A DNA stretch of 64,000 bases from positions 57,320,323-57,384,322 of the forward strand of contig NC_057725.1 of assembly GCF_004010195.1 (NCBI RefSeq). Direction: 5' to 3'. A model generated the notes under the pieces. The model worked only from the letters and a program-made list of their open reading frames with translations. It was not told the origin of the DNA and made no database searches. Origin of the DNA: Chiloscyllium plagiosum. Lineage: Eukaryota. Position 1 is the stretch's first letter. Each line of letters opens with the position of its first letter. The translations under genes were made by a program, and so were the position numbers. Below, in pieces: positions 1,125-62,178 of the stretch.

Positions 1125-1595
1125 CTAACTGGGTGTCTGGGTGCACTCTTGTCTTTGAGTCAGTAGGTCTCAGCTTCTAGCTCCACATTTTGGCAAATAA
1201 CACAGGTTGATATGCCAGTGTAGTACCAAGGTTGTGTGCTGCACTTTGTTAAGTGCCATGATGTAGAGGTGCCAGTGTTGGACAAAGTTAATAGTCACAT
1301 GACACTAGGTTATAGTCTAACAGGTTTATTGGAAATCACAAGCTTTCATCACAGCCTCTTCACCTGATGAAGGGGCAGCTGTCTGAAAGCTTGTGATTTC
1401 TAATAAACCCGTTGGACTACAACCTGGCGTCATGTGACTTCTGACTTTCTAAGTGAAATTTTCCAGATGAGAAATTTAAATGAGCTGTCATACTCCACCT
1501 TGTGTTGATATGAGAGATGCTCCAACACTCAAAAATGAGCCTGGGAATTCTTCCTCAAGTCTTGGCCAACATTTATCCCCAAACTCTAGGTCGAG
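1125..1595 (+). mobile_element. Deu-domain SINE (SacSINE1/AmnSINE1-like), interrupted by a palindromic insertion
   Basis: Degenerate Deu core CCAGTGTAGTAC...GCTGCACT | TTTCCAGATGAGA...GGAATTCTTCCTCAAGTCTTGGCCAACATTTATCCC, split at ~1259-1449. Confidence 0.6.
1260..1449. mobile_element. Penelope-like fold-back element, family A, with hammerhead core
   Basis: Inverted arms 1284-1348 / 1384-1448; CAC-CTGATGA (1364-1370)...GAAA (1385-1388)-GC-TT-GTG; imperfect flanking repeat TAAGTGCCAT / TAAGTGAAAT. Confidence 0.75.
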
Positions 1596-2659
1596 GCAAT
1601 GTCTTCAGTTACCAACCATTAGGCAACATGTTTAATTGTTGCATCTTCTGCTGCTACTCTTTCAGAGATTGGCTGTGTCAGCATAAGCCACAAGTTCAAA
1701 TCTGGACCCTTACTGGGTGGTGAGTCTCAATGTCCCATTTGGCAGAAACAGACGGGACTGAACTGTGGGAGCTTTAAGTGTGCTTGTTTCGCTTGTTGTA
1801 TCTGAACTGCGATTTGTATAACCAGTCAGATATATGAATAATACAATACCATTTTCAGTCTCTGTTAGTAATTTCTTTTTATTCCATTCAATCATGTAAA
1901 ATAATTATGTTACAGCATTTAAGTTAAATCTGCAGAACACCATAACATGGTGAAAACAAATGTCAGTGGTGCTCTGGTTACATTGAAGAGAACTGAAAAG
2001 CTGAACCCAAGGTCAGCATTTATTGATGCAGTTCAGGATTTTCCAGCCTCATAGTCATGCAAGGAGTCCAGTTGCTGTTACAGCACAGTATGTGAATTAT
2101 TAATCTCTACTAAACCCCAGTCCCCTTGGGAAACAGTGAAAAGGGATAAGTAGAATTCGGAAACATGCCTGTATTGCTGCAAGGAACCATTTCTTTGCCA
2201 GAGTATTAGATCAAGTGTAGGTTTCAGTGTGTCAGGGAATGTAATTTTCTGGAATCACAGTTTTATACGTGAACTCCTAAATTCTGTGTTTCTGTTCTGA
2301 ATGCCTTTTTCTAGTTTTGGGGGATACAGACTGTTGGGGATTCCCATTATTGTCTGTTTGACATGGCCAGTGTTACTGTTGTCATACGTGACCAAAGTGC
2401 TTTAACCCATTGAGTTCATCACCACAGGCACACAGTAAATCTTGCAACTGTCCAGTGTCGCAATTACCTCCTCTTTTACAATAACTGTAATAGAGTCATC
2501 TCCTCTGGTGTGGGAAAAAATTAAGGTATTCATTCAGTACTTCAGCCGTGCTCTCTTCCTGAAAACATGAATCCCTTTTTGATCCCTGATCCACTTCATA
2601 TCTTAATCCTTATAGCAGGCTTTATTTAATATTGCTTGCCAGTCCCTTCCCATACTCTC

Positions 2660-2900
2660 ACCTCTGTCAAATTTCCCAGCTCCCTTAATCTAAAAGCAGG
2701 AATTCATCTCAGTCCCTATTATCAGTCCAGGTATGGCACCATGACCTTTAGCTGTTCCCCTTTTTCTGCTCACCGCACTCAGTAACACCCTTAACCCTAG
2801 CACCAGGGAGGCAACAGACAATCCTGGATTCACATCTGCAGGTGCAGAATTACCTATTTGTTATCCTAAATGGGAGAATTCCCCCTTCACTGCTGCTTTC
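2660..2900 (-). mobile_element. CR1 LINE ORF1 (esterase-like) fragment
   Basis: Minus-strand translation SRIVCCLPGARVKGVTE matches the CR1 ORF1 'VCCLPGARV' motif; disrupted. Confidence 0.65.
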
Positions 2901-3099
2901 CTGACCTCACTCCTCGCAATTGAGCCAGCCATGGTGTCAATCCCCGCACCCCCATCAACAAGCTAAACTGTCTCCCTCGTCAGTATCCCGAACTGAATTG
3001 GGAGTCCAGCACTGACTCCTCTTTGACTCTCCGATGATCATCCATCCCTGCTGTGCCTGCATTCACTGGCTTAGTCACGCAGAGGCCCAAGCTAATGTG

Positions 3100-3270
3100 C
3101 TGGGGACACCAGTCCAAATCCCACCAAGACTGATATGTGACTCCAGACCCACAGCAATGTGGTCGACTCTTAAAAGGCCTCCAAACTGTCTTAGCAAGTT
3201 GTTCAGCTGAAGGACAGTTAGGGATGGCAACAAATACTGGCATTGCTAGAAAGTTCTACACCCCATGAAA
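3100..3270 (+). mobile_element. tRNA-SINE family X, 3' part
   Basis: GTGACTCCAGACCCACAGCAATGTGGT...TTAGGGATGGCAACAAATACTGGC, shared with 26650-27050, 42228-42366 and 49000-49325. Confidence 0.7.
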
Positions 3271-4590: not shown

Positions 4591-5261
4591 ACTCCTGCAG
4601 TGGTTCTTTTTCTGTCTCCCACTGACATCCTGCTGCTGTTGTACCCTGTTAGTCACAAGAACCATTTTTTTGTCTGGTTCAGTCTTCTGATTGCCAACTA
4701 TTACAGGTTGGTCTTGGCTACTGATTTTCCTGTATCTTTTGGTCGTTTTTGTGATAAATTGTGATGCTGCAGTGTCACATTCGCTTTAATGTAATCTTCC
4801 CATGGGTTCAATCTGGTGAACAGAGAGAACGGGACCTTTCTGTTGTGAGCTCTGAGGACAGCAGTTTGCCTTGTATTGTGTTCTTACTGAACTACTTGCA
4901 AGGTGGCCACCTTCAGTGAGTGCCTTGTGGCAAAGGTCACATAGCACAGCAAGCCAGGAATGACAGGGTAGATTTTCCAAGCTAAGATCCCCTTTTTTGT
5001 GCCAAAAGGAACAAATTTCCACACACTATCATTTACACTGAGTTACCAAGCTGCTGACTATGTAACCAACTACTCCAATGCATTGGAATCCTATTCACAA
5101 TCCTAGTTAGTCTCTCCTTCGTCAGGCTTTTAACATGTATGGGGACACAGAAACCCATGTGTTGCTAGCATTTGCTCATTTTCAAAACAATCTTGGCACA
5201 GCCTGCTGTTGCTGTGGACACCTTTTTCCTTTTAATTACTTTGGCTGTGTCCAGAAAGGAA

Positions 5262-5465
5262 AAAAATCACACAACACCAGGTTATAGTCCAACAGGTTTA
5301 ATTGGAAGCACACTAGCTTTCGGAGCATCGCTCCTTCATCACTATCATCTAATGAAGGAGCGATGCTCCGAAAGCTAGTGCTTCCAATTAAACCTGTTGG
5401 ACTATAACTTGGTGTTGTGTGATTTTTAACTTTGCACACCGCAGTCCAACACCGGCATCTCCAAA
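5262..5465. mobile_element. Penelope-like fold-back element, family A
   Basis: Arms ~5262-5341 / 5351-5427; perfect 12-bp TSD TCCAGAAAGGAA (5250-5261, 5466-5477); ribozyme core mutated to CTAATGA. Confidence 0.85.
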
Positions 5466-5883
5466 TCCAGAAAGGAAGTATTTTTAATTTTATTCTTTTT
5501 ATTTTGTGGCATGGTGTTTTCTTTAGGCCCTGCAATGAGTCCCTCTCTGTCTCTCGCATTCAGTTTGTCAGCTTCTGTGGCCTACAAATTACTGTAAATC
5601 TCTTCTGGCCCATCTCAGATTGCTAGTCCGTACATTTGGGGTTTTGTTGAGTTCATTGGCGTTATCATCATGTCTTCCATCAGCTGTCCCAGATCTCCAG
5701 TTTTGTCATTGCCTTGAGCCCATCTGACAGGGCTGCACAAACTGGTTGACACTTTATATTTGTTCAATGTTCTTGTCCTGCTGTCTTTATCACAAAAGTT
5801 ACAAGTCATTTTTCTCCTGCAGACTTGACGTCGTTCAACTTGCTCCAAGTTGTTGACTGGATTATCTGAGTTGTTGTCTGACA

Positions 5884-7572: not shown

Positions 7573-7690
7573 GAAAAGCAAATTACTGCGGATGCTGGAA
7601 TCTGAAACCAAAAGAGAAAATGCTGGAAAATCTCAGCAGGTCTGGCAGCATCTGTAAGAAAAGAAAAGAGCTGACATTTTGAGTCGTGAC
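7573..7690 (-). mobile_element. Penelope-like 3' fragment, family C, truncated inside the hammerhead
   Basis: Homologous to 51166-51306; 13-bp TSD CTTTCAACC(A/G)TGA at 7560-7572 and 7691-7703. Confidence 0.75.
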
Positions 7691-9498
7691 CTTTCAACCG
7701 TGAACTGCCTCTTTATTCTCTGTAGCTTTAAGCAGTGTTGAACATTCCTTCAGTCCTCTTTTAGTAGCTGTGCTTCTACACATTTCTTCTACAACATAAA
7801 ATCTCAATTCCCCTGACATCATTTCACAGGATTGCAGTCTGGCTTATACTGTGTACTCTCTGTAAGATGATTGCCTGTAATGAGTGTTTCATGTCACAGG
7901 TAACATGGCAATAGCAAGCCTAAAAGCACTCTTGTGCAATTTCCATCTAAACATTTTCGAACTAATGTGTTTCAGGCTGCTTTTGGTGACTTTCCCCATT
8001 TCCCTAGAAAGGGAATGGAATGCCTCTTTAAAAATAAATATATCAACAGAAGTTTCAGTCAATGAATTGCGCAGAGCTTGCCAGAATGTGGTCAGAAAAC
8101 CAAGCTGGAGATGTCAGGAGACAAGCCTGGGCTTGCCCTGGTGTGATGCGTGAGTCACACATCAGGCTTGTGACTTCTGTTGTTGTTATTGGTCTGCACC
8201 ACTCATATAGAAAGTAGAAAATCTGTGCCTGCACTTGCATTTGAAGTAAGTTTCAATCACTGATTTGTTTTAAAGAGTTGTTTGAGCCGAAACAAGTTAA
8301 TTTGAGCTCATTGCATTGCACTGCATTATCATTCTGACTCCATGTTCCGTTGGTCATAAGTAGACATAAAGACACAAGAGTAGACAGACGTAAAAAAAAT
8401 CACTTTGTTCAGTTCTCTTATTTTGTGGAAATTTAGGGCCAGATATTCCACTAAAGTGAAATGTAAAAAAAAATTTGCATTTAGATGCCACTTTCCTCGT
8501 TACTCGAATGTTATTAAAATATTCCTATTCCTTACATATCACTCATCATTGCTGATGGAAAAGTGGAGGAGCCTAAATTGGGTGTGACTTCCTGGTGGAA
8601 TTGTGTCACTTGTTAGTTTAATATTTTGGTACTGACATCACCAGACACTGCATGAGGCAAGAAAGTGGGATTGCACCAACTTGTGAAACATTTGTCTATT
8701 ATGTCCAAACATCTGATGAATGTGATTGCAAACAGACTTAATAAGGACTTAATGGCTGGAAAATTTAGAGTTTCTCCTGGTTTCCTGGAATTGGAAGCAC
8801 ATTAGAACACCCTCCCTATTTACACATATATTGAAAATTTCCATCATACTTCGGTGAGGTACTGCCAATAGACTGGATACAAGTCTGAGGATCTGCTGAT
8901 CATTTAATACAGGATTGCATGACAATGTGGTTAGATTTTAAATGCACCTCTCAGACTGATCCTGGGATTGTGACCTGGCCACCCACTCCAGAACCACAGG
9001 AGCTTTCCTTATATTGTTTATAAAGATTGGACTGCTTCTGGAAAAGGTGATGGAACTATGATGTTAGTGTTATACATGCAAATCGAATGCAGATCTTCTT
9101 CGCTGCTGGGTCCTAAGTTTACATGCAACTCTAACTGCTGATTGAAAGTTTCCTCACTCAACCCAGGTCCATGAAATTAGTCCATCTGGGTCATTTTAAC
9201 CTAAATCATAGCAATACTCAAGTAGACCACAACGATGGCCAAGTCAGATCTGGACAAATTGTATTGATAGTGAAGAGATTATGTTTTTATTTCTAATCCA
9301 TGTTCATCCTGGGAGTGCTTAATACTTACCTTTTGTAGGAAGAATTGTGACATTTTGCTTTCCCCAAGTTGGAGATCAGTATCTGACTTCCTGGTACCAG
9401 ACGAGTGTACAACTTTAAACTAGTCAAGAGGGTGGCGGTGTAGTTATTTGTCATTGAGTGCCCTTTGAGGTGGAATCACAAAGTGGTAAAGATTAACC

Positions 9499-9789
9499 AT
9501 TAGATTACTTTACAGTGTGGAAACAAGCCCTTCGACCCAACAAGTCCACACCGACCCGCCGAAGCGCAACCCACCCATACCCCTCCATTTACCCCTTACC
9601 TAACACTACGGACAATTTAGCATGGCCAATTCACCTGGCCTGCTCATCTTTGGACTGTGGGAGGAAACCGGAGCACCCGGAGGAAACCCACGCAGACACG
9701 GGGAGAATGTGCAAACTCCACATAGTCAGTCGCCTGAGGCGGGAATTGAACCCGGGTCTTTGGCGCTGTGAGGCAGCAGTATTAACCAC
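9499..9789 (-). mobile_element. HE1-like V-SINE
   Basis: Head, V-domain and tail intact; CpG-rich, so probably young. Confidence 0.92.
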
Positions 9790-9916
9790 GGTGGCACAGT
9801 GGTTAGCACTACTGCCTCACAGCGCCAGAGACCCGGGTTCAATTCCCACCTCAGGCAACTCTGTGGACTTGTTGGGCCGAAGGGCCTGTTTCCACACTGT
9901 AAAGTAATCTAATCTA
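9788..9916 (+). mobile_element. Internally deleted HE1-like SINE fused head-to-head with the previous copy
   Basis: Head GTGGCACAGTGGTTAGCACT...GGGTTCAATTCCC joined directly to tail TGTGGACTTGTTGGGCCGAAGGGCCTGTTTCCACACTGTAAAGTAATCTAATC. Confidence 0.9.
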
Positions 9917-10358
9917 ACCAGAATTGTAAATGGCAAATAGTTGGTTTATTTCAGTCTGGCTGCTATTGTTTTCCTTTTACATGAAAGTTAATTAGACTTT
10001 GAAAAATATTCAGTCTAGTATTTGGGGTTTCTTGTTGTACTCATGACATATCAAATGATGCTTTTTCAATTCTGTGAGATCAATCTCTTCAATTTGATCT
10101 TACAGGGATGTTGTCCACAGGATTAGCATTATTTGACTAAGATGCTTTGCTGGAGTCCTACTGCACATTTGCAGTGCTTTGATCAAAGTTAATTTGATGG
10201 AACAGTATCAATTTCCAAGCATTATCTTTTCCCCACAGGTTCATGCTTCCATGCGAGTAAACCTTCACAGCTGAATATCGTGCTCATACATATACACCTA
10301 GACCTGTACAGGACTCAACAGTTTATCAACTTTCCAAACAAAACATTCTTGCAGTTTT

Positions 10359-13425: not shown

Positions 13426-16318
13426 ACAAATTCGATAATTTGTTTTTGTTATTTCCATAGTTGTTCATGAATGTTTAAAATCAACCAATTGAGCATCAGG
13501 CTCCTTGGTGTGGGTTTGAAGATTTGATGTAGCATTGTACAGATGTTTGCAGGCAAACTGCAGTGACATGAATATTTAGTCAGGAAAGGCTCCCAAGAAT
13601 TATTGTACGTAGCCCGACTTGCAGAGAACAACCTGCTGATACCTTGCAACAAGACCCAAGGCAGGTCATTCCTATCGCTCACTTACTGCACTTACACTGT
13701 GGGTAAATAAATTATCCTTGACCCTGAACTTTGGTGGAACTGGCTGTCCTCCAGTTAAACTCTGTCTTCCAGTAACCTGGCTCAGGACTGTGTTTTCTTA
13801 ACCTCTTGTTATTTTATTTCATCCAATGAGACTAATATGATCACTGAGTGTATATAGTGAGTTGTTATGGTATTTTCATAAAAACCAAGAGTACATTCCA
13901 TAATTTTCTTCGTCTCTCCTCTGCATTAAAAATAAATGAGTTGTCTTGGAAGCTAAACTATACACATGATTCCAATGTCACTGAGTTCTGTGTGAGATGC
14001 AATCAGCAGTAAAACATGGATTCCTGAGGCTTCAGTGATCACAGTGATGGATGGGATGCCTGGGATAGCAGTTCCAGAGGTCTCCTACTCATAGCTTAGA
14101 AGTCCTATTGTGAGTTCTGGGGGTATATGGCGAGGAGATCATTCCTCAAGGAAAGGAGACCAACTTCCTAAGGCCAGCTGAGCATGGATGGAAATGGCCG
14201 AGACAGTCCAGGGGAGTGTGCAACCTGAAAAGACTTTGCCAGGAAGGTGCAGGAGCTGAGTGTGGGCACTGTGGAGTGGGGGAAGAAGAAAGGCTGAGAG
14301 CAGAATATTTTCAGCTGCCAATCCCACATTATGACACAGCATTTCTCATATCTCACTGCTTTTATTTCATTCTCCCCTCCTTATATTCTCATCTGGATAG
14401 CCAACTCTCCTCCTCACACCTGCACCTTCCACAAATGTTGTCTTCCCCTCTTCTACACACAAGTTATGCTTTTTAAACATTTCTGCTTTTTCTCCTTATA
14501 GAAGAAGTGAATATATAACTTGGGAAAAAGGCAGGGAGCTGGCAGATAGATGGGTCAGTGCCCCTCCACTGATAGGTACCTTGATGATCCAGTGGGAAAT
14601 AAGTCTTGTTCCAGGGTGCTCCAAATGTCAGCGACAATGATATTCTGGCATATTGAGAACGCTGTTCCTCATCCTGTAGCATTGTTGTGGAGTAGATGTG
14701 TACTGTACATTGATTGGTGTGGTGTCATGAGTTTTCTTTGAGGCTGGCGCATGACTGGTGCCCATGTCTGTGGACATAGGCTGCATGGGTCTGGTGCCCA
14801 TGGAGTGTACCCTCAAATGTTTGGTGTTCAGTGTGCAGGTCCTTTGGGCCAGGTGGTGAGCTGAAGTCATCAGGTGGCCACTCTGTTTGCCCTGTTGAGA
14901 ATTCTCATGTCTAGTTTGCTGGGAAGTCAGTGCATCTACCATGTCAGTTGGTGTGCGCGAACCCTCCACACCGTTCGGCTGAGAGGAGATACTGATGGGG
15001 CATGATTTGGGATTCCTGGCCAATTTTCACTGTCCCAGGGTAAGAGCACCCTGCACCCCTGAGCTTTGCATTACTGCAAGGCATCTCGTAGCTGCTTCAC
15101 CCCAACCTCCTGCAATTTTCACAGTGTTGGACCATTTCCCCGTGACTTGTAATTCATGACTTCTCAGAGGAGTCATAAACCATAGTAAGGATACAACTAC
15201 TTTTTGAAAGGTGAGTCTACATGTTCTTAACAGTTCCCCATGATTCTTCATGCTCCCTTTATTCCGATTTAGTGCAAACTCATAACCCCCACTGACCCCA
15301 TCACCCCTTATACTCTTCATTCTAATTTGATACTAAATTATACACATGTCTCTAGTTCCTTCCCAAAGCCACTCATATTGTCAATGCCAACTCAATGGCT
15401 CATTTTACAAACATAAACTCAGCAAGGGCTTCTGTTTGAGCACTGAATTGTTGACTGTGCTTGATTGACATTGTTATTGTAAATTGTTCTTTCTGTGATC
15501 TGTTCTGTCAATGTCTCAAAGTTATTTTGGACACAGTTATCAGGAATGAAATGGTTTAGTCCTCTGTTATTTGGTACGTTATCAGTCTGTCTGATTGACA
15601 TAGTTATAGGGTTGTAGGAACAGCAGCCATTCTTTAAAGGAAGACTTGTGAATAATATTTTTTTCTCTTTGTCAGCACTTCCACACTTGCTATTTTTATT
15701 AGATGGCTCATTGATTATCTGCACAGTGCCCACTGGGTGATTGGTCATGGAAGGGGCAGTGAGTTGGCATGGACAATGAAGTGCCATAGTGGGGGGAATG
15801 AGTTGACTTTTAGAATCTGAGGGACCATGGGGCTATTTAGGGGGTACAATATGGAATTAAGTTGGCATGGAACATGATGTGCCTTTGGGCTCTTGGGGAG
15901 GTGGGGAGGGGGTGGTCATGAGTTGGCAAGGATAGGGGAGTCACAAGTTTTGTTTTGCATTGGTGTCAACTGGTATGAATACTTGTGGAAGGTATAATGG
16001 GCCAATAGGATGTGAGGGCTGAAGGGTCTAGAATTTTATAAAGCAGCTGAGTAAGAGGCTCCAGAGAAGTGAAATGGGCTTTTCAGGTAGCCCACCTCAG
16101 GACCGGTCCATTCATGTGGTTGCTTACTCTCAGCTTCCAGGATTGGCAGGCCTGACTACACACCACATGCTCTCTCTAGGTCCAGGTTCAGCAAGTCGTG
16201 AGATTTACTGGCTGGATCTACGCACCTCGAGCCAATATCCGGCCCATATAATGACACAGGAGGCTATTCCACCCGCCATGCTTGAGACAGCTCTTTGATA
16301 GAGCTGTTCAATTAATTC

Positions 16319-16531
16319 AAAAAGTGTGGCACTGGAAAAGCTCAGCAGGTCAAGCAGCATCCGAGGAGTAGGAGAGTCGATGTTTTGGGCATAATGTCAT
16401 TCCTGATGAAGGGTTTATGCCCGAAACATCGACTTTCCTAATCCTTGGATGCTGCCTGACATGTTGTGCTTTTCCAGCACCACACTTTTGGACTCTGACT
16501 CTCCAGCATCTGCAGTCCTCACTTTCTTCCA
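16319..16531. mobile_element. Penelope-like fold-back element, family B, with hammerhead core
   Basis: Inverted arms; CTGATGA (16403-16409)-A-GGGTTTATGCCC-GAAA (16423-16426)-CATC; TSD TTCAATTAA(T/C)TC at 16307-16318 and 16532-16543. Confidence 0.82.
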
Positions 16532-17707
16532 TTCAATTAACTCCACAGATTTGCTCTTTCCTCACAAACTGTAAAACAGAAAAGAATGCCAATCTCTCGA
16601 ACATTTATCCAAAGTTTTGTTTTGTGGGCGTGATTCTGCTTCCACCACCCTGTTCAGGCAGTGCCCCCCTTGAAAACAAGGTCTCTGATCCTACCTTTGG
16701 AAAATGATTGCGAGACAGACAGATTGGCAAACTGGCACACCAGGCTGTCCAGGGATGTGAATCTGTGTCTGCCTGCCTTTATGTGCAATCCATTCAGCCC
16801 ATTGAGCCTGTTCTGCCAGTTAGGTCATGGCTTATTTGTCTCTCAAATCCATTTACTCACGTTGAACCAAATCTCTTGATATCCCTTAATAAAAATAATC
16901 TGCCAACCCTATCTTGAATATTTTTAATTCACCCAGCAGCTGCAAACTTTTTTTTTTACCCTTGGTGCACCTGGGCCTTTTAGAAATATGTTTCTGATTT
17001 TACTCCTTCGAGTCTACAGGGGAAACCTTTCCAGCTGGAATCATCTTCAGCACTTGCCTCTGGATCTTTTTGAAGGGGATAATATTCTCACTGTGATTAA
17101 CTGGCCAAAACTGCATACAGGATTCCAACTGGGGTCTGACCAGTGCCAGTAGCAACACTACAACCTCTTTTGATCTGCGCTCCTATTCCTCACATGTTCT
17201 GCAGGATCCTGAGCCCCATCCAGTTTCAATTCATAGGAAATTCTATATTTTATCTTTTTTCTTATGTGAGTTCACAGCTTGGCTGAGTGATTGGAATATT
17301 CAACAAAAAAGCCACGGCCTCTGTGTTGAAGATTTGCTTGGCCTTCAATTGTGGTGCAGTGGGTAAAACAAAATGCAAATATTTGGAAGCATTTCATACA
17401 AATATATTGAACTGGTTAGCGTTTTTACATAAAAGTAATTGCATTCTGAGTACAAGGTTCAATTTCCAAATTTTCATTGGAAATACAACTCATGAAGAGA
17501 GATAAAATAAAAAGCCAACTTGTTAGTGCTGGTTTTACCCGATTGAATGTAATTCGCATTTATTCCATTGTGTTAGGGTCAAACCTTCATGCATAGCATT
17601 TAGAGGTGCGAAGTATTTTCTACAAGCACGAAGGGTATGGTATTTTTCAAAGCGGATTTGTTCTAATTGATGCAGAAATTCTAGATACATTTGCATTTTT
17701 GCCTGCT

Positions 17708-18190: not shown

Positions 18191-19530
18191 CGAGTCATAA
18201 AGTCCTACAGCAGAAAACAGACCCTTTAGTCCAACTAGTGCACACCAACCAGAATTCCAAACTAAACTAGTCCCACTTGGCCCATTTCCCTCCAAACCTA
18301 TCCTCTTCATGGACTTATCTGAATGTTGTAACTGTACCTGCATCCACTGGAAGTTCATTCCATGCACAGACCGCCCTCTGTGTAAAAGAGTTGCACCTCA
18401 GGTCCCTTTTCATTCTTTCTACTCTCACCTTAAAAATATGCCCCTTAGGTCTGAACTCCCTAACCCTAGGGAAAGGATCCTCATCATGATTTGGATGCAA
18501 GCATAAGAGGTACAGTTAGTAAGTTTGCAGATGACACCAAAATTGGAGGTGTAGTGGACAGATTACAACAGGATCTGGAGCAGATGGGCCAATGGGCTGA
18601 GAAGCAGCAGATGGAGTTTAATTCAGATAAATGCAAGGTGCTGCATTTTGGGAAAGCAAATTTTAGCAGGACTTATACACTTAATGGTAAGGTCCTCGGG
18701 AGTGTTGCTGAACAAAGAGACCTTGGAGTGCAGGTTGATAGCTCCTTGAAAGTGGAGTCGCAGGTAGATAGGATAGTGAAGAAGACGTTTGGTATGCTTT
18801 CCTTTATTGGTCAGAGTATTGAGTACAGGTGTTGGGAGGTTGTGTTGCGGCTGTACAGGACATTGGTTAGGCCACTGTTGGAATATTGCATGCAATTTTG
18901 GTCTTCTTCCTATCAGAAAGCTGTTGTGAAACTTGAAAGGATTCAGAAAAGATTTACAGGGATGTTGCCAGGGTTGGAGGATTTGAGCTATAGGGAGAGG
19001 CTGAACAGGCTGGGGCTGTTTTCTCTGGAGCGTCGGAAGCTGAGGGGTGACCTTATAGAGGTTTAGAAAATTATGAGGGGCAAGGATAGGGTAGGCAAAG
19101 TCTTTTCCCTGGGGTTGGGGAGCCCAGAACTAGAGAGCATAGGTTTAGGGTGAGAGGGGAAGATATAAAAGAGACCTACGGGGCAACTTTTTCACGCAGA
19201 GGGTGATATGTGTATGGAATGAGCTGCCAGAGGAAGTGGTGGAGGCTGGTACAATTGCAACATTTAAGAGGCATTTGGATGGGTATATGATTAGGAAGGG
19301 TTTGGAGGGATATGGGCTGGGTGTTGGCAGGTCGGACTAGATCGGGTTGGGATACCTGGTCGGCATGGACGGGTTAGAAGGGTCTATTTCCGTTCTGTAC
19401 ATCTCTATGACTCTATGACTCTATTCACCTTGTTTCATGGTTTTGTAAACCTCAATAAGGTCACCCCTGAACCTCCTACGCTCCAGTGAAAAAAAGTCCC
19501 AGCCTTTCCAGCCAATTGTTATATCTCAAA
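18191..19530 (-). mobile_element. CR1 LINE 3' fragment (18191-18480 and 19421-19530) split by a plus-strand CR1
   Basis: Minus ORF 18315-18500 FTQRAVCAWNELP; collinear continuation CTATTCACCTT...GGTCACCCCTGAACCTCC after the insert. Confidence 0.8.
18487..19423 (+). mobile_element. CR1/HER1-like LINE, 5'-truncated, includes the RT catalytic motif
   Basis: ORF 18491-19066 SKFADDTKIGG...KCKVLHFG...EQRDLGVQV; premature stop at 19064-19066; tail (CTCTATGA)n. Confidence 0.95.
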
Positions 19531-21337: not shown

Positions 21338-21339
21338 TA

Positions 21340-22152: not shown

Positions 22153-24469
22153 AAATTTTCAGACTCTTGGCCAGCCCAAACTATGCAGGATGCATCCATT
22201 ATAATGAGGGCTGTGCTGGAAGGGACACACAACCACACTTAGATAATCCGCACGCTGAGAATGCAACAGTGTTATTCACAATGTAGTTTACATTTGGCCT
22301 TCCTGTCAGTCAGAAGAAGAAGGAGGAGAAAACATAATGTAGGTGCCATGGCCTCACCCATTAATTGAAGAATCAAAAAAAGCTCTACTTCATGTCCATG
22401 CCCATCATATTAAGTGCCAAACCAACACCTAAGTGACCAACTGCAGATCTTCTCTGGAATGGACTTTAGGGGCAGAAATTCTGGTCTCTGAGAGCTGCCA
22501 GCAAATTACAGACTGGCAGTCATTCATTACCATCAGCACCACCATAAGAAGGTTGGTTTCTGCTGGCAATGGGTTCTCAGAAACCCAAGGTCATGAGGTG
22601 CCCTGTCTACAGGTGAATGACAGTGTGGTCACAGGGAAGGGCATGCTGACTGGTAACATTAGAACTGCAGGGATAAGTTGGAATGAATCTGTAAAAGTTT
22701 TTCTTAAATTTACTTGCAGCACGATTAAACATTTTCCAACATCCCGATTGCTCCTCAGTATTTATTATAGTGAATAGGTCTAGTATTACAGTCTTGCTAT
22801 AACTGATGTACCGTGAGTCTGGTTTGAATACTGCTCCTTACCCCTTTCTCTTCCTCTAGATTTTGTCCCACTGGTCAGTTCAAATAGGGATTGATAAATC
22901 CTTGATTTTCTCCTGGTCTGAGTAAGCCTTGTGTGTTTTGTTTTAAACACCAGGAGCAATGGAGATATCTTATTTTACCAACAGAGAGGTTGGGCTGTAG
23001 GTTGAACAGAGATACGTGTTGGAACTATCCTACATTTAGCATCTTTGAGCCAGTTTTCAGCTAGACTTTGGAATTTCAGTGTAGGGAAAACTACAAAACT
23101 TTGAGTGACCATCTTTTTTTTATTTGACAGGTATTACATCCTTAAGCACTTCCTTCAACTCCCTTCCGTGATAAATGCATACCTCCATGTTTGTAATGAA
23201 AACTACCTTACTTTTGCCAGGTTGTAATTACATATTCCTGCCACTAGTGGTCCTGTAGTGCCTTGTTTATTTTTTGTCCCTCCAACTCTTCCCACTCTAA
23301 TGCTCCAACAGCTCTTAACGGTGACATTCTCAATTCTAAGTCAGGGTTGAAATATTGCTCATGACAGTCCCAGTGAGTGGAGGTTTCTGATCTTAATTCC
23401 AGGAAGTTATGCAGTGCAGATATTTGTGTCTTGTGGATGTTAGTCACTCACTAATTACAGGGGTGTGTAAAATGTATTAAACCCTCCTGTCTTACAGGAC
23501 AAATCACCATGTTGATTCTATAATAATAGTTATGGTCACGGTATGAGTTTTCATGCAACAGTGTGTCAAGCTGTAAGTGAGCCATGAATCTTTATATCAC
23601 TTTATGCGGCTGTCCCAAGAGAATACCCATATGTTACAGTAAATAATATTATGTTTACAACACACATATATTAAACAGCAAAACATGCAGCAATTTGAGA
23701 GTCAGGTTTGTAAAGTTGATGTATCAACTCTACTTTCCGGGATCCCAAATTATTTTGCGATTTAATTATAATAACATCCATTTAAGTATTTTCTCAAAAT
23801 AAGGATAGAGTATATAATTTTTAAAACGGATGTGGCATTAGGCTGCAGTCTTGGTCTATTTGTCCCCTGCTCTCTAATCCCATTTCACCTGCACACCACA
23901 CTTTGTCTGAACTTCTCGTGTGCGCTGACTAGTAATTTTAGAAAGGCTCAGATGAACAGTCGCCTCTGCCATCCCACAAAGAAATTGATAGCTTGTGTGT
24001 TGTCCTTTCCTTCCCATGAAAATTGCAGACTTTAACATAGTTCTAAAGCCCACTTAAAAGATCAGAAGCTGCACTTCCAAGGACATCATTTTATTTTTAA
24101 GAACAAAAATGTAGCATTTGTAAAGATTCTCAAAGTCTTGACATCCACACCCTTGTTGTCTACAAAGTTAATGATTCCTGCTCTTCTGGGTAAGCTCACG
24201 TCATCCTGTTTCCTCTGTATCCTTCAACATAAACAAGACTCTGATGCCCATTTCATATTCTCCTTTCTAAAGACAGACAATCTTTCTACTCCTCAAATAT
24301 TGGTCTCTTCTACATTCTCCTTTCTTCATCCCAACTATGGTGAGTCTACCTTTAGCTTGCATATAGAGGTGTTAATTTCCAAAATGTTCTTTGTAAATCG
24401 AACCACTCCCTTCTTTAAGACCCTTTAAATACAATGGTCCACCCAATTTTAATATTTTCTACTTTTACT

Positions 24470-32922: not shown

Positions 32923-32931
32923 GTTGGCAAC

Positions 32932-36437: not shown

Positions 36438-36579
36438 ACCCCCCATGTACCCATGACATTCCACCAAAACCAAGGCTGGGAGAGGAGGACTCTCAACTCC
36501 ACCCTATTACGCTCAGATACAAATGCCATGTGGCATTGGTCCATGGCTTTTACTGTGACTGGGGGAAAGATATCAGACA

Positions 36580-38334: not shown

Positions 38335-39405
38335 GTATGACTTCAGTGGGATGTGGTTTCAGTGGAATATGATTACAGTGGGGTGTGATTTCAATAGCAG
38401 GCTGTGATTTGAATGGGATATGATTTCAATGGGGTATGATTTCAGTCGTGGGGTGTGATTTCAATGGAGATGATTTCAATGGTGTTTGATTTCAGAGGGG
38501 TGTGATTTCATTGGGGTTTGACTTCAGTGGGGTGTGATTTCAATGGTGTGTGATTTCAGAATTGCGTGTGATTTCAGTAGTGGGGTGTGATTTCAGTGGG
38601 GTGTGATTTCAATGAGTATGGTTTCAGTAGTGGGGTGTGATTTTGGTGGGGTATGGTTTGAATGCGGTGTGATTTCAATGAGGTTTGATTTTAATGGCGT
38701 ATGATTTCAGTAATGNNNNNNNNNNNNNNNNNNNNNNNNNNNNNNNNNNNNNNNNNNNNNNNNNNNNNNNNNNNNNNNNNNNNNNNNNNNNNNNNNNNNN
38801 NNNNNNNNNNNNNNNNNNNNNNNNNNNNNNNNNNNNNNNNNNNNNNNNNNNNNNNNNNNNNNNNNNNNNNNNNNNNNNNNNNNNNNNNNNNNNNNNNNNN
38901 NNNNNNNNNNNNNNNNNNNNNNNNNNNNNNNNNNNNNNNNNNNNNNNNNNNNNNNNNNNNNNNNNNNNNNNNNNNNNNNNNNNNNNNNNNNNNNNNNNNN
39001 NNNNNNNNNNNNNNNNNNNNNNNNNNNNNNNNNNNNNNNNNNNNNNNNNNNNNNNNNNNNNNNNNNNNNNNNNNNNNNNNNNNNNNNNNNNNNNNNNNNN
39101 NNNNNTTTGAATGGTGTGATTTCAGTGGGATATGGTTTTAGTGGAATGTGATTTCAGTGGGATATGGTTTCAGTGGAATGTGATTTCAGTGGGGTATGGT
39201 TTCAGTGGGATGTGATTTCAGCGAGGTGTGATTTCAGTAGTGGAGTGTAATTTCTGTGGGGTATGGTTTCCATGGAGTGTGATTTCAGTGGGGTATAGTT
39301 TCAGTGGGACGTGATTTCAGTGGAGTATAGTTTCAGTGAGATGTGATTTCAGTGGGGTGTGATTCAGTTGTGTACGATTTCAGTTATGGGCTGTGATTCA
39401 GTGAG
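38335..39405. repeat. 16-bp minisatellite (consensus ~GTGATTTCAGTGGGGT)
   Basis: Tandem units on both sides of the N gap; alternating variants after the gap. Confidence 0.92.
38716..39105. other. Assembly gap (390 N)
   Basis: N run. Confidence 1.
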
Positions 39406-41671
39406 GTTGCTTTCTTGGGCCAGTTAGAAAGGCCACAGAAGATGGAGTGGTGAGAGGGAGGGAATGCTCAGGAGTCTTGGGGAAGAACAGTAGGGAGGTA
39501 CAGTTCTGGGGCAGGGATAACCATTTGCACTGGGGTGCGTGGGGCCCTCCAGAAGAGGGACTCATCATTACCTCTCCCCGAGGCTATAGCCAAGTCCCAG
39601 GGTTCATTTGGCTGTCACCCTGACACAGAGAAAATGCAAGCAGCGATGGGAGAAGACCACTCAATTGATCCCCGTGCAGGCGAGCTGTCCTCCACCTACC
39701 CCAGCACAGATACAACCATTTTCCCAACCAGCAGACTGCTCCTCCTGTGAATGGAGGGTGTTGGTAGCTTAAACCTCTAGCCATGAGTTCTGAGGATGGT
39801 TCCTCATATAATCAGCTAAAGGTAGAGTGCTATCTCTATGCCTGAAATATGACAGCAGGAATTCAACCATCAACTTCTAGGAGTACCACACCTTCCTCAT
39901 TCCACAAATAAACCTGGAGGTTAAAATAACTGCTGTTACGTCAGTTAAGAGTTCTACCAAAGAAATGGGAGTTAGTTGAATGTTTGGTGCAAACAGGAGC
40001 AAGATCTGAATCAGAGCAAATGGATTGAGCAATCAAATGTCGTGCGAAATCTTCATAAACTGCTTAATCCTATCATACATTACAATAGTGACTGCATCTC
40101 CATCAGAGTTTACTGTGCTCTTGTCGTAAAGGCACTCTTTAACAACTGGGGCTTGTTTCTGTAACTGACCATGCACATACAGTACCAGTGCAGCCAGGTC
40201 ATCCAGAGTCTGTTTATTGGTCTCATACAATTGGGAGAATATTCCTGAAAGGGACTAAAGTCCATGAGGAAATTATGCGTGAACTACGGAAGAACAGCCT
40301 TAATGGGCCGAATGACCGCTCCTTGTTCCACACCCGTTGTTTTACATCACTTCTTGCTCATATGGGTCTTTGTTATTGAGAGTCACTGAATAAATATGAA
40401 TCTGTGTTCTGCCTTCTCATCAACAAATGCTGGCTCCAGCCTTTCTGCACTAATTGGTAAAACCTGTCCCATGTTCATTTCTTCCTTCCGAAATCTTAAT
40501 TTCCCTGCCCTCAGCACCAACTTGGCACCTGCAGGCCATTTCCTCCTTTTGTTCAGGTGAACTGCAGCAGGCCTGTCGAGGTGGGGGCGGGCTACTTTTT
40601 CACTGTATTTTTGCAAAGGAACAGTGAGATTCTTATGGCCTTATCAGCAATTCAGTGCATTGGATGCATAAGATCTGGGTGTCAAGTTTTCCTGCGCCCA
40701 GAGTGGTGGTTGTTTGGGATGGAGGTTGGGGGGAGGGGGTGGAAGTAGTGTTTGTTTTGCCAGCTCTCCTCAAAATCTGAATCACTCTACACGTTTCTGC
40801 CCCTTATTTTTCCCTTTCCCTAGCCTGATACCACATGTGACAGGGAATGTCTAGGATCAGGAATTACTGATGCAAGTGTCAGAAACTGAGGTTATTGTCG
40901 TCTGGGGGAGGTCACATGGTAAAGGAAGTGATGGATGGTCCTATTCAGGACGATTTTGGAAACAATGGAGGCAAATTCTAATTCCATAATAGTTGTGGTG
41001 GAATCTGTGAAAACTGAGTTCAGTGACAATACATGAGGCAGATGGATCACGTCGGTTTAGCTGCGATTTTGTTTTTATTTGGTTCAGTTGCAAAACAGTG
41101 GAGATTAGTTTTGCTTTCCACTCCAGATTTTCCTTTAAAGTCAGTTCACAAATTCTCCAGCAGCAACAGAAGGATTTGAAGAGGCATTTTCCAAGCCTAT
41201 TGGGGGGATAAGGGTGTGGTAGCAGGGGTCTCACCCAGCAAGAGCTACTGACTGACCAAAGCACAGCAGGCTAAGCTCAGCAGCGCCACAGAGGAAGTTG
41301 TGGCTACTGGCAGAAGAGCACGCTAAGGGCCCCTAGAGTCGCTGAGAACGCACAAAAGAAGGAAGTGATTTGTGGAGCAAGGGTTGGGAGGTTACTCATG
41401 TTAGATGTCAAGAGGAGAAACTGGAGGGGTGCAGTGTGGGCAAAGAGATTGCTCCCAGCATGGGGAGGTGTTGGCATAGTGGTAATATCACCAGGCTATT
41501 AATCTAAAGATCCAGGTAATATTGTGAGGACTTGCGTACAAATCCCACTATGCTTGCAGATGGTGAAGTCTCAATTCAATAAAAATCTGGAATTAAGAGT
41601 CTAATGATGGCTATGAATCCATCTGTTTTAGTTTGGAAAAACCCATCTGGTTCACTAATGCCCTTCAGGGA

Positions 41672-51165: not shown

Positions 51166-51306
51166 GCTTCTGAAGAAGGGTCACTGCACCTGAAACATTA
51201 ACTGTGCTTTCTCTACACAGATGCTGCCAGAGCTGCTGAGGTTTTCCAGCAATTTCTGTTTTTGATTCAGATTTCCAGCATCCACAGTTCTTTCAAGTTT
51301 ATTTTT
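51166..51306 (+). mobile_element. Penelope-like 3' fragment, family C, beginning at a hammerhead core
   Basis: TT-CTGAAGA(51170-76)-A-GGGTCACTGCACCT-GAAA(51192-95)-CATT-AA; TSD AGCACAGA at 51158-51165 and 51307-51314. Confidence 0.78.
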
Positions 51307-51386
51307 AGCACAGAACCAGGAGCCAGTCAGTTCATCATGCCAATACCAAGACATTTTAACGAGGTCTCACCACCATGCTCTTTCTT

Positions 51387-52350: not shown

Positions 52351-52396
52351 CTTTAAAGACTCCTGATGATTGAAGAAGAGGATTAGCCGTATACTT

Positions 52397-52630
52397 TCAA
52401 GATTAGAGTGGTGCTGGGAAAGCACAGTAGGTCAGGCAACATCCGAGTAGCAGGAAAATCGATGTTTCGGGCAGGAGTCCTTCATCAAGAATGACAGTCA
52501 TTCCTGATGAAGGGCTTTTGCTTGAAATGTCAATTTTCCTGCTTCTCGAATACTGCCTGACCTGCTGTGCCTTTCCAGCACCACTTTAATCTTGACTCTA
52601 ATCTCCAGCATCTGCAGTCCTCACTTTCAC
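52397..52630. mobile_element. Penelope-like fold-back element, family B
   Basis: ~100-bp arms centred on GAATGAC-A-GTCATTC (~52497); CTGATGA at 52504-52510; TSD TTAGCC(G/A)TATACT at 52383-52395 and 52631-52643. Confidence 0.85.
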
Positions 52631-53418
52631 TTAGCCATATACTCTACCTGGAGTAGCCCAGATGTGATTTTTTTGGGCCTCCTCTCCATAATCTTGTGGT
52701 GCCTTCGTAGAGTTGTGACTTCATCGAAATCCTTTCTTCCTGGCATGTCTCAGTTCCTTTCTTCTCTATCGCTTGTCACTATACTTCTAATGGCTGCTTT
52801 GCTGGTAGGCCTCTCTCATTCATACACATTTTAATTCTCATTCTTTGCCCACAGCCTTTTAACTTCTCTCTCACTTTTGAAAGCTATTTATCTGTCAATC
52901 CTTTCTTGTCTTCTGTGTCTGTATCTCTCCCCTCACCAGATGGACAAAAACAGGCCATTCCATAGCAAGTACACCTCACACAAACCTCTTCCTATTTTAC
53001 TTCATCTCCGCCAGCAGCACATTCTTCTATTGCTTTCTGCTTCATGTGTTTAACTGGCTTTCCCTTAAATGCCAATCACCTCGACTGCTCCTTCTGGTAA
53101 TGACTTTACCATTCTTACTAATTTAAATGCAAAAAGACCCTTCTGATGTCCTAATTGGATTGATATGATTCTGTTGTGTGGACAAGCTTTAACTTTGGTC
53201 TTGTACAGAACTGGAAATATTTTCTTGGCAACTACACTGACAAATTTGCTTATTATCTTAAGGGCCTGTCATATGTCATCCTTGTTATCGAAGGAAAAGC
53301 AGCTAATCTTTTTCAGATTTTCCTGATAAGTATACCTCTCAATTGTTGTCTCATTCTTATGATTTTCTTTTACCCTAACCAATGTCTCCACATTCATTTT
53401 GTAACATAGAGACCAGAA

Positions 53419-55469: not shown

Positions 55470-55732
55470 CATTTGAACCAAAACCTGCAACCCATTCTAA
55501 AAGATAAAAGAATTAACAGCAATCTATGTTTGTTCAATATATCATTTCAGCTGCATGACACTGTAATCTTTTGCTATAAATTCTGTGTCTTATGATCCTA
55601 TTCCACAGCTACCTAATGAAGGAGCAGCACTCCAAAAGCTAGTACTTCCAAGTAAACCTGTTGAACTATAACTCGGTATTGTATGACTTTTAACCTTGTC
55701 CACCCCAGTCCAACACCGGCTCCTCCACATCA
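55470..55732 (+). mobile_element. Penelope-like family A 3' end, non-inverted, degenerate ribozyme
   Basis: TAC-CTAATGA-A-GGAGCAGCACTCC-AAAA-GCTA-GTA followed by the family-A tail CCAGTCCAACACCGGCTCCTCCACATC; 5' boundary uncertain. Confidence 0.7.
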
Positions 55733-55759
55733 CTGTTTTGAGTGGCATTGTGGAGAATT

Positions 55760-57270: not shown

Positions 57271-57344
57271 TGTAGCTATTTTTCTGGAACCAGGAGTTGT
57301 AGTTGTATAGCCATGCCCAGCTAGGATTACCTCCCCTGTTGATC

Positions 57345-58948: not shown

Positions 58949-59099
58949 AATTCAATTCAGTCTCTTCTTAAAAGCATTGTGTATGTACCAACATCAGTAA
59001 GCAAAGAAGGTGGCTCACTACACCCTTGTGGAGGGCAGTGCATAACAATAATCTCACATTTCACAAACATAGTAAAACCTCACTTTAAGCAGGGGCACC

Positions 59100-60510
59100 G
59101 TTAGTATTTATTGCCCATCCCCGGGTAACTCCTTTGAGAAGTCAGGAAGTGAGTCACAGAATTCTCAGCCACAGTATGTAGGTGGCTGGGCCAGCTCAGT
59201 TGCTAGGCAGTGATAACCTCCAGGATGTTGATAGTGGGGGGACTTCAGCAATGGTCACACCACTGAAGGTCAAGGGGTGACAGATAGATTCTCTCTCTTG
59301 TCAGAGATGATGTGGATGTGCTGATGTTGGAACGGGATGGATAAAGTTAAAAGTCCTGTTGGATGATCATACCATTTATGTGGAACAAATGTTACATGAC
59401 ATTTATCTGCACAGGCCCATATGATGAACATGAACTGCTTCATTATGTGCGAACAGTGCTGAACATTATGTAATAATCAGTGACCATCTCCACTTCCAAC
59501 AGTTTACTTGATAAAGCAGCTGAAGATGGTTGGGTCTGAAATATTATCCTGAAGAACTCTTACAGTGATGTCCTACTGTGAGATGTTTGACCTCCAACAA
59601 CCACAGCCATCTTTCTTTGTGCTAAGTATCATTTCCAACCAGCAGAGAGTTTTGCCACTGATTCCCATTGACTCTTGTTTAGCTGGAGCTCCACAAATGC
59701 TGCAGCCTATCAAATGCAGCGTTGACATCAAGGACAGCCGCTCTCGTTTCCTCTCTTGAATTCAGTTCTTTTGTCCATAGTTGGATCAGGACTCTAACAA
59801 GATCAGGAACTAAGTGAGCCTGGCAAAACCCAAACTGCGCATGAGTGAGCAAGTTATTATTAAGCAAGAGTCACTCGTTGGAGTGATGACAATACTTTCC
59901 ATCACTTGGCTGGTTGGAGTAGACTGATGGGATTATAATTGGGTGGGTTGGATTTGTACAGCTTTTTGTGTGCAAGAAATACCTGAATAATTTTCCACGT
60001 TATTGGGGAGATACTAACGTTGAGGTTGCACTAGAACAGCTTGACAAGTTCTGGAACACACATCTTGTCTTCAGTATTGCAAAAAACATATTGTGAGGGC
60101 CCAAACTCTTCGCAGTATCCAGCGCCTTCAACCAGTTCTTCATATCATGTGGAGTGAATCGAATTGGTTGAAGACTGGCATCTGTTTATGCTGGGGAGCA
60201 CTGGAGGAGGCTGAAATGGAACGTCAACATCAATCTTCTGGCTGAAGATTGTTGCAAATTCTGGGGGGGCTGAAGATATTTGTGAGTCAGTTGAACCGAA
60301 GGGTCTGTTTCCATGCTGTACATCTCTATGACTCTATGACACTAAGTCTGAAGCGCTCAGACATGATCCATTGATAATGGGATTTCTTAGGTCTGTCTGT
60401 CACTAACTGCTGAGTATACAAGTAGTCCTGTGTTGTAGCTTCACCAGGTTGACACCTCATCTTTAGGTCTACCTCGTGCTGTTCCTGGCATGCCCTCCTG
60501 CACTCTTCAT
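59100..60510 (-). mobile_element. Degenerate CR1/L2-group LINE (RT domain), with a CR1 tail fragment (+) at ~60285-60340
   Basis: ORF 59679-59867 LLTHAQFGF...DL...W...LN...VLDVNAAFDRLQH; tail TTTATTGCCCATCCC at ~59107. Confidence 0.75.
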
Positions 60511-62010
60511 TAGTCCATTGGGAGGAATTCAGTTATCCACTGGAGCCCTAACCATTAGGTACAAGGAATCCAGATAGCCTTCCCTTCTTTTTGTCTTTCT
60601 TGAGAAACTCTTCACGCACGCAGGTAGACATATGCGGGAGAGGGAAAACCAGCACCACAAAATAAACCTGCATTTATTTAGCACCTTCTGATGCAGTAAA
60701 ATGCCCTGAGGAATTTCCCAAGAGCTTTATAAAGTAATTTAACACTGAACCAAGAATGAATAGAGAGGTGTTGGGAGACACATCAGATGGCTGAAGATGC
60801 AACTCCAACAGTGGGACAGTTAAAGTGGGGAATGGTGTGATGCTTTCCCAGGTATCATTGGTCTGAATTTTTATCAGAATTGATTCTGATGTCCCCCTCA
60901 TCCCATCCCTCCTTGCTGTAGTTACAGGTCTGTCCTTCCGCCTCACATTCTGCCTACTGAATCCCACCTCCCAACTCTACAAATTAAATACAGGGGACAC
61001 TAGATAACCAGCCAACTTAGTGCTTCATTCTCACTTGCCTAGTTCATATCACTCCTTGGAATTAGTAGCCAATTTTTTTCACAGTGTGGTTGGAGAGAGT
61101 TGACGGGGTAAAACGTGTTAACCCTTTCTTGTGTTATGTGGCCGTGACCTTCCCTTAACCCCTATATCTCACTCTACCCGTATCAGAATGCCCAGCCATG
61201 TTTATTTTATTTCTATGCAAAGCAACTTGCCAGAATTCAGTGAGCAGCTGGCGTGATGGTATTGGCATGCGCAGGACATGTGCAAAGTAGGATGTGGTTT
61301 TAGCAGATCAAGAACACACAGTCCTCCCCTTCAAACAGGAAGCTGCACAATGTTCTTTCGTTGTGACTGCGGCGAGAGAAAAAAATAAGCTCCCGTCGCT
61401 TAGATCACGTAACCAAGCATTTGAAAGAGACAAGAAAGGTTTGTTTGTGCTGGGGTCTGATAACACTGCGGGATGCCAGGGACAGAGAGAGAGAGAGAGA
61501 AGTAAAACCCTCAAAATGCACTACCCAGTCAAAATGCATCTCCACCAATCTTGTATGTGAATAAATACCAAGTGGTTGAGGGAGGAAGTGAAGGAGTATT
61601 TTAGACATTGAAGTATAGCCATTTCAGCACTGTTCATAGGCATGTTACAGCTTTCATCTAGTGAGTTTTCTCCACATCTGATATATATTTGCCAATTTCG
61701 TTGATAAATTGATTCTTCGCTTTGGGCAAGACAAATCCTCAGTCTTTCTCCTTCCCACTCCTGTCAGCCAGCCAACTCTCTCCAGCCTCGACCAGACTGA
61801 GACTGATCTCCTCCCTTGTCCTGATGCACCTGCTCGCTGCTCACCCACTCACCGCCTTCACCCACAAAACCTTTGCTGTAAGCAGTGGCCCAGGACAGGG
61901 GTAGTGAGAAGGGAGAAGCCAGCAAGAGGAGCTACTGTTGGGAGAGTGGGGAGTGGAAGCAGGCGATGGGAGCAAGGCTCTGATTGTGGAGCAGGCCATT
62001 CCAAAGTGGT

Positions 62011-62178
62011 AAAAACAAGGACTGCAGATGCTGGAAACCAGAGTCTAAACTAGAGTGGTGCTGGAAAAGCACAGCAGGTCACGCAGCATCCAAGGAGCAG
62101 GAAAATCAACTTTTGCCCGATTTTCCTGCTCCTCGGATGCTGCCTGACCTGCTGTGCTTTTCCAGCACCACCCCACGC
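62011..62178. mobile_element. Penelope-like fold-back element, family B, ribozyme core deleted at the axis
   Basis: Arms GTGGTGCTGGAAAAGCACAGCAGGTC...GGAAAATC / GATTTTCC...GCTTTTCCAGCACCAC; TSD TCC(A/G)AAGTGGT at 62000-62010 and 62179-62189. Confidence 0.82.

Follow-up and report, generated by a model that had tools for sequence, protein, structure and literature searches.

Short fold-back insertions from two families of very probable Penelope-like elements in Chiloscyllium plagiosum, and the position of their fold point relative to the hammerhead motif

In a 64,000-nucleotide stretch of Chiloscyllium plagiosum DNA (NCBI RefSeq assembly GCF_004010195.1, contig NC_057725.1, positions 57,320,323 to 57,384,322 of the forward strand; hereafter the window), seven short insertions consist of a sequence joined to an inverted copy of itself close to a hammerhead ribozyme (HHR) motif, and the question they raise is what sets the point at which they fold back. 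The initial annotation, made from the sequence alone, held that the ribozyme, through its structure or a cleavage end, fixes the position where reverse transcription snaps back. The present analyses revealed a pattern that is mostly ordinary, with one testable twist, namely that the fold point likely marks the start of the RNA rather than the predicted ribozyme cut. The reading preferred here, to which a probability of roughly 0.45 is assigned, is that two complementary DNAs (cDNAs) primed from both nicked target strands run to the 5' end of the RNA, as in a strong stop, and are joined there.

Architecture and origin of the fold-back insertions

An inverted-repeat scan over the whole window, which is AT-rich and repeat-rich with many pieces of long interspersed elements (LINEs) and tRNA-type short interspersed elements (SINEs), returned 16 inverted pairs. 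All seven palindromes named by the initial annotation (family A at 1260, 5262 and 32838; family B at 16319, 36226, 52397 and 62011) were recovered among them (Table 1), and seven fold-backs per 64 kb agree with its estimate of about one per 9 kb. In every element an inverted, 5'-truncated copy is joined head-to-head at the 5' end, the arms being 83-99% identical across 53-99 aligned nt, and one arm bears a tail of 35-44 nt that is absent from the other, as expected from the earlier description of one full, tailed arm and one shorter arm. Tail lengths and the 5'-most bases of the arms were determined by hand from the alignments; the tails measured 35-39 nt in five elements (38 nt in 1260 after counting its 10-nt deletion), about 36-40 nt in 36226, whose ends are approximate, and about 44 nt in 62011. 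The long arm lies on the left side in 1260, 36226 and 62011, and in six of the seven elements the short arm ends no more than about 6 nt away from a site that is constant for its family. Both arms are only 60-130 nt long, with no open reading frame (ORF) between or beside them.

Target-site duplications (TSDs) were judged against 1483 random spans of 200 nt, among which 42 scored at least 6, three at least 8, one reached 9 and none reached 10. Six insertions had been said to carry TSDs of 10-13 bp; their variable length was confirmed, with repeats of 6-13 bp in 6/7 elements and of 9-13 bp in 5/7, but the narrower range of 10-13 bp applies to only 4/7. The repeat at 1260 is a weak one of 6 bp only (42 of the 1483 random spans score as high), and no TSD was found at the ends of 36226, which are approximate.

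The elements are very probably end pieces of Penelope-like elements (PLEs) from two families, because they are built like the PLE insertion unit already described in the literature; this agrees with the origin proposed at the outset. According to the papers cited here, each of which was available in part, an inverted 5'-truncated copy beside a pseudo-long terminal repeat (pLTR), a tail of 30-40 bp at one end and an HHR within the pLTR are typical of PLEs (PMC8557442), and head-to-head junctions with TSDs of 8-10 bp are also on record (PMC3846280). Endonuclease-positive (EN+) PLEs (Penelope/Poseidon, Neptune, Nematis) therefore share with the present insertions the head-to-head inversion, the one-ended tail, the variable TSD and the HHR in the repeat. 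The ranges differ (TSD 8-10 bp versus 6-13 bp here; tail 30-40 bp versus 35-44 nt), the arms of 60-130 nt without an ORF are unlike that unit, and a clustering of fold points such as that described below is not quantified in the available parts of the sources. In metazoan PLEs, pairs of minimal HHRs on opposite strands have been reported 100-700 bp apart (PMC4209133, in the part available, which does not mention sharks), whereas here they are adjacent (0-25 nt) and most copies have a broken core. In the openly licensed literature, no paper was found on inverted hammerhead units of Penelope in sharks.

Whether the fold-backs might instead be non-autonomous elements, retrozyme- or MITE-like, that were amplified as palindromes from a few masters was also considered, and this appears highly improbable. 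The copy number is indeed very high (23,558-33,196 contigs per run in the survey below), and non-autonomous HHR-bearing PLE derivatives exist (bioRxiv 10.64898/2026.07.22.740005, partly available). However, all seven centres differ from each other, the TSDs range from 6 to 13 bp, no tandem copies are present and only one arm has the tail; in addition, arm variants are common to both arms of one insertion and not shared across insertions, as in the helix II loop and the hexamer of 5262 compared with 32838. Miniature inverted-repeat transposable elements (MITEs) resemble the fold-backs in being short, very abundant and hairpin-like; this class, defined by equal terminal inverted repeats, short TSDs of fixed length and homogeneous copies, was rejected on the unequal arms, the TSDs of 6-13 bp and the seven different centres, in agreement with the initial annotation, since centres and TSDs vary from copy to copy in the window. 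Non-LTR retrozymes, HHR-bearing PLE derivatives likewise, are defined by two or more tandem units that all contain a complete HHR (bioRxiv 10.64898/2026.07.22.740005), and were rejected as well, the copies here being inverted pairs or single, not tandem.

The arms of 1260 and 52397 differ at 11/78 and 17/99 positions, respectively, mostly by transitions. In both elements (1256-1449 and 52397-52630) the differences are clustered at the helix II loop and the short-arm end and are possible subfamily marks; two different RNA templates might have entered one insertion in each case, and plain decay fits equally.

If transcribed, the fold-backs are predicted to form 118-186 paired nucleotides with unbroken helices of 23-50 bp, and where both arms include the core such pairing would block the hammerhead fold. 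It had been suggested that such hairpins could feed ADAR or Dicer; no adenosine-to-inosine signal was seen in RNA reads cross-mapped to a non-inverted copy rather than to the fold-backs (A>G at 30 places versus T>C at 33).

The hammerhead motif and the position of the fold point

Positions are numbered from the C of the CTGANGA core (+1), negative values lying 5' of it. The motif comprises CUGANGA, a bulged base, a G-C pair at the base of helix II, GAAA, a palindromic dinucleotide and UH. The same set of features (CUGANGA, one bulged base before G10.1-C11.1, GAAA, a 2-nt palindromic loop and a short helix I) defines the minimal type I HHR of metazoan PLEs (PMC4209133, in the available part), and on these features the motif was assigned as a putative minimal type I HHR, with predicted cuts after +29 in family A and after +28 in family B. 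An intact core pattern is present in 6/14 arms and in the non-inverted copy 51166, 32838 being the sole element with two intact arms; in helix I, just 2-5 of 6 positions pair. Searches of Rfam gave no match of any kind at the gathering threshold and no hammerhead at E up to 10 on two elements, where only sub-threshold matches to microRNA (miRNA), small nucleolar RNA and long non-coding RNA families appeared. Minimal HHRs are described as weak and as functioning in the form of dimers (PMC4209133).

The 5'-most native bases of the two arms were -7/-7 in 32838, -7/-8 in 52397, -7 to -9/+2 in 5262, -8 to -10/+13 in 16319, -1 to -3/+5 in 1260, -1 to -14/+12 in 36226, and about +27/+12 to +29 in 62011. 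All 14 arms thus begin between -14 and +29 of the core, and an arm ends at -7 to -10 in four of the seven elements, two per family, two of them being symmetric there. Joints fall between -14 and +13 in six elements, and only that of 62011 lies near the predicted cut. The axis had been placed within about 20 nt upstream of the core, or in a deletion of it. The clustering near the hammerhead stands, but four elements have one arm that ends within the core, and an upstream position of the axis is thus not universal.

The clustering of the axes is real but moderate. All seven fall in a 44-nt interval, with p of about 4e-4 under the best-fitting geometric truncation and about 0.02 when arms longer than 110 nt are purged, the interval having in both cases been chosen after the data were seen. 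It is improbable that no special stop exists and that scattered axes only appear clustered through steep 5' truncation, detection limits, loss of long palindromes and central deletion. The weaker value after purging is in favour of such scatter, as are the joints listed in the read survey below, which span -6 to -99, and the lopsided centres of five of the seven elements, for central deletion is known to leave palindromes lopsided. It is nevertheless contradicted by the two symmetric axes, -7/-7 in one family and -7/-8 in the other, together with two more arms at -7 to -10, and purging gives no account of the missing axes between +30 and +60.

The same positions bear on the proposal that the hammerhead sets the stop, either as a fold, at which the reverse transcriptase (RT) stalls or which is bound by protein, or through its cleavage end, the cDNA then snapping back. 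Proximity favours it: all 14 arms and three of the five non-inverted copies start within or beside the motif (-14 to +35), 62011 and the non-inverted copy 29479 start near the predicted cut, and the end at -7, just past the 5' strand of helix I, is common to two families of different sequence. Self-priming was, moreover, proposed for the Penelope of A. vaga (PMC3846280, in the available part). A cleavage end, however, predicts +29/+30 and a stall about +35, where the 3' foot of the fold lies, and only 62011 and 29479 fit, six of the seven joints lying 5' of both cut and foot. Also against the proposal, family A is often read through (see below) and helix I pairs poorly. In the available parts of the published work, PAc with a dead HHR inserts normally in vitro with no reads ending at its cut site (PMC11167929), and Naiad PLEs without canonical HHRs show the same inverted-plus-tail unit (PMC8557442). 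Nor does snap-back by itself give any reason for the constant site, 35-44 nt ahead of the 3' end, at which the short arms terminate. A role of the ribozyme in fixing the axis, as put forward by the initial annotation, is therefore unlikely.

A proposed strong stop at the RNA 5' end

The wider behaviour of family A was surveyed by aligning three DNA runs and one RNA run to the non-inverted copy at 55474-55732, which drew 23,558, 33,196 and 29,800 DNA contigs per run (this organism and two others). Depth relative to the single-copy flank suggests tens of thousands of copies, a value that is not a copy number; the reference copy is diverged. The 3' end was sharp: contigs ended at 55730-55733, and the mode, 55732, collected 1334-1524 of them in each run. 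Upstream depth was 0.50, 0.61 and 0.71 of core depth in the three DNA runs, a rough measure on a diverged reference copy, and because of this RT appears often to pass the hammerhead. The bins bearing a TATA motif (55560-55583) were the deepest upstream bins in all three. Strand changes accounted for 5/15 joints listed (-99/-6, -84/-45, -83/-18, -74/+84 and -58/+88); a further 88 joints lie outside the list, hence these counts are no census, and contigs would tend to break at young palindromes. Position 55607 (-6) terminates 3/25 joints listed by hand count, and carries little weight given that identity dips there.

In the RNA run, 174 reads had loose poly(A) ends behind 55671, 13-15 nt past the hexamer (AATAAA in most reads, with one mismatch in the reference copy), which puts the poly(A) site at +57 to +59, ahead of a GU-rich stretch that is not A-rich. 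The same copy has TATAAA at -38, 30 nt before an initiator (Inr)-like A at -8. This promoter was searched for only after the cluster at -7 to -10 had been seen; among the Inr-like sites of the window, just 15/2392 have a TATA motif 28-33 nt upstream. As an observation in its own right, the poly(A) signal of family A is present on both arms of 5262 and 32838.

Under the preferred reading, an RT/GIY-YIG protein would cut both target strands in a staggered manner, as PAc does, and leave the TSD of 6-13 bp. The long arm would then derive from a cDNA begun at the end of the tail (about +120), and the short arm from one begun at about +80 to +92, which is 35-44 nt closer to the 5' end. These two steps, taken jointly, are probable. 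In the lizard, the protein of PAc (Poseidon, Anolis carolinensis) cuts and extends both target strands, and the tail is the stretch between two internal RT start sites about 35-40 nt apart (PMC11167929, in the available part). Here the arm ends are likewise constant, at about +82 and about +120 in family A, and the fixed end of the short arm follows from two start sites, whereas snap-back alone leaves it without explanation. The likeness extends to the HHR, which in PAc lies roughly 100-150 nt upstream of the start sites and is dispensable for insertion. The ORF of PAc begins at helix II, a frame that in family A runs into a stop within 10 codons. The available part of the PAc study neither explains inverted joints nor proposes a stop at the RNA 5' end.

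The third step is more tentative and falls somewhat short of even odds: the RNA would begin just upstream of the hammerhead, near -8. Family A would then be organised like a long terminal repeat (LTR): TATA at -38 would be followed by the RNA start at -8 and the poly(A) site at +57 to +59, and the sites of RT initiation would come after these. Since the RT sites lie beyond the poly(A) site, a polyadenylated RNA would contain them near its 5' end alone, and the two cDNAs would reach lengths of about 90 and 128 nt before stopping. In 32838 the arms measure 89 and 127 nt, and the single G at its axis could be a copied cap, in this one case. Retroviral minus-strand strong-stop DNA is the known counterpart, a short first cDNA that ends at the RNA 5' end; unlike there, no tRNA primer and no integrase would take part here. 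In a fourth step, end-joining would unite the cDNA ends head-to-head, using 0-3 nt of microhomology together with trimming; most copies would afterwards have become lopsided through central deletions, and longer copies might arise from a cDNA jump to the matching RNA 3' end or from read-through RNA. The hammerhead would thus be a passenger at the RNA start. LINE-1 twin priming, in which a second primer from the opposite target strand yields an inversion inside the TSD, is a related process; there, priming copies two distinct, neighbouring portions of the RNA from variable sites, whereas here both cDNAs would copy one and the same segment from fixed sites.

A tRNA-type SINE that lacks a ribozyme (9500-9914) also folds back at its own 5' end, and this was counted in favour of the strong stop. 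Its short arm is internally deleted and 3' ends are found on both sides; the likely cause is two-ended priming of a LINE-mobilised SINE.

Alternatively, the boundary near -8 could correspond to where the pLTR begins on its 5' side in one or a few truncated masters under the control of a host promoter, or, as in D. virilis, to a splice acceptor; either origin is very unlikely. In the available parts of the sources, the 3' end of the D. virilis intron maps to the 5' end of helix I (PMC4209133), and pLTRs are 5'-truncated tandem copies (PMC8557442, PMC2377424), and both points favour such an origin. The same offset is, however, found in two unrelated families, and family A has canonical TATA spacing.

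Several observations weigh against a stop at an RNA start near -8. No arm is known to reach -7 in three of the seven elements (1260, 62011, and 36226 with its unassigned spacer), and 62011, which has no core, and the non-inverted 29479 begin near the cut site. All five opposite-strand joints listed have one side at -58 to -99. The RNA run listed no pile-up of read beginnings or ends, in a library that may not show starts, and the poly(A) reads may represent a small number of loci, or host transcripts that terminate in a copy. The TATA/Inr pair is known from one copy of one family, the window holding no upstream sequence of family B, and the SINE control is a single case. The D. virilis Penelope has a TATA-less internal promoter, and its start precedes the hammerhead by 46 nt plus a 75-nt intron (PMC2377424, PMC4209133, in the available parts), and because of this difference the promoter and start layout is not general. 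Finally, a search for the autonomous RT and GIY-YIG parent, which the initial annotation had called for, did not recover it: there was one stray motif match in six frames of the window, and none of 284 ORFs had a Pfam match.

A broader extension, that PLEs here replicate through an LTR-like strong stop, with a short terminal redundancy and an obligatory jump to the RNA 3' end that regenerates the pLTR, so that fold-backs and stubs of 90-130 nt are failed jumps, is doubtful. No paper with a strong-stop reading of Penelope was found in the openly licensed literature, supplements excluded.

Other copies, setting and implications

Five non-inverted copies of the same or related families, absent from the initial annotation, were found in the window and are listed with the fold-backs in Table 1.

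Table 1. Coordinates of the fold-back insertions, their flanking repeats and related copies in the window
Feature	Position	Strand and arms	Flanking repeat (left / right, match)	Remarks
Family A fold-back, older variant (1260)	1256-1449	long arm and tail 1256-1362 (-), short arm 1363-1449 (+)	1250-1255 / 1450-1455, 6 bp	arms 86% identical
Family A fold-back (5262)	5262-5465	short arm 5262-5341 (-), long arm 5342-5465 (+)	5250-5261 / 5466-5477, 12/12	38-nt tail; arms 99% identical; core broken in both arms
Family A fold-back (32838)	32838-33054	symmetric axis 32927, both arms to -7, one G between	32825-32834 / 33055-33064, 10/10, 3 filler nt on left	arms 93% identical; core intact in both arms
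Family B fold-back (16319)	16317-16531	short arm 16317-16394 (-), long arm from about 16395 (+)	16307-16315 / 16532-16540, 9/9	39-nt tail
Family B (subfamily) fold-back (36226)	36222-36446	long arm and tail left (-), short arm right (+)		about 14 nt unassigned spacer before core; ends approximate
Family B fold-back (52397)	52397-52630	symmetric axis 52496, arms to -8 and -7	52383-52395 / 52631-52643, 12/13	35-nt tail
Family B fold-back without CTGANGA core (62011)	62011-62178	long arm left (-)	62000-62010 / 62179-62189, 10/11	joint near predicted cut site
Non-inverted family A copy	55474-55732	+		reaches -139; native element extends upstream of 55474
Landmarks in 55474-55732	TATAAA 55575-55580; Inr-like A 55605; decayed core 55613-55641	+
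3' landmarks in 55474-55732	hexamer 55651-55656; poly(A) site 55669-55671; GU-rich stretch; tail end 55732	+
Tail-only family A fragment	59305-59356	-	no TSD found	starts about +73
Non-inverted family B copy inside SINE	29479-29573	-	6 bp	starts +34, about 5 nt 3' of predicted cut
Non-inverted family C copy	7573-7691	-	12-13 bp, 1 mismatch	starts about +10, inside helix II
Non-inverted family C copy	51166-51307	+	8 bp	starts about 4 nt before intact core
tRNA-type SINE fold-back, ribozyme-free control	9500-9914	head-to-head, joined at SINE 5' end (9793/9795)	9494-9499 / 9915-9920, 6 bp

Family C (7573-7691 and 51166-51307) is a third hammerhead-bearing family, much of whose 3' part is common to family B; neither of its copies is inverted, both have TSDs, and their starts lie at or within the core. 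Database searches gave no match to the family A core pattern in viral_contigs or metagenome_contigs and none to the family B/C motif in viral_contigs; seven matches to the latter in metagenome_contigs were taken as chance and rejected, none of the seven having the flanking sequence of the element.

Upstream of 55474, a 30-nt consensus of loose ends can be read in one frame as nine codons followed by a stop; this may be the terminus of the parent ORF and may resemble Neptune-type ends. The short-arm end of both families (55690-55710; 52590-52607) is 3' splice site-like, with a branch-point-like motif, pyrimidines and a CAG inside the tail, and the family A tail terminates in an ATG-like sequence; introns in the 5' untranslated region of PLEs are known.

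No host gene was recognised, none of the 284 stop-free frames of at least 55 aa, taken mostly outside the repeats of the window, having a Pfam match, a search that short exons would escape. Elsewhere in the window, a tandem low-complexity repeat at 38335-39414 surrounds a 390-nt gap of N (38716-39105), and a LINE 3' fragment with an inverted 58-nt piece at 19019-19492 is possibly a product of LINE twin priming.

Short stubs of this kind resemble MITEs or precursors of miRNAs, as the sub-threshold Rfam matches to miRNA families illustrate, and are at risk of misannotation. A family A fold-back has a used poly(A) signal on both strands, and host transcripts entering it from either side could be terminated there. 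Should the axis be the RNA start, the tens of thousands of joints in the genome make the model of strong stop and strand transfer directly testable, and if the strong stop is true, the fold-backs would be a fossil record of where transcription of these elements began.

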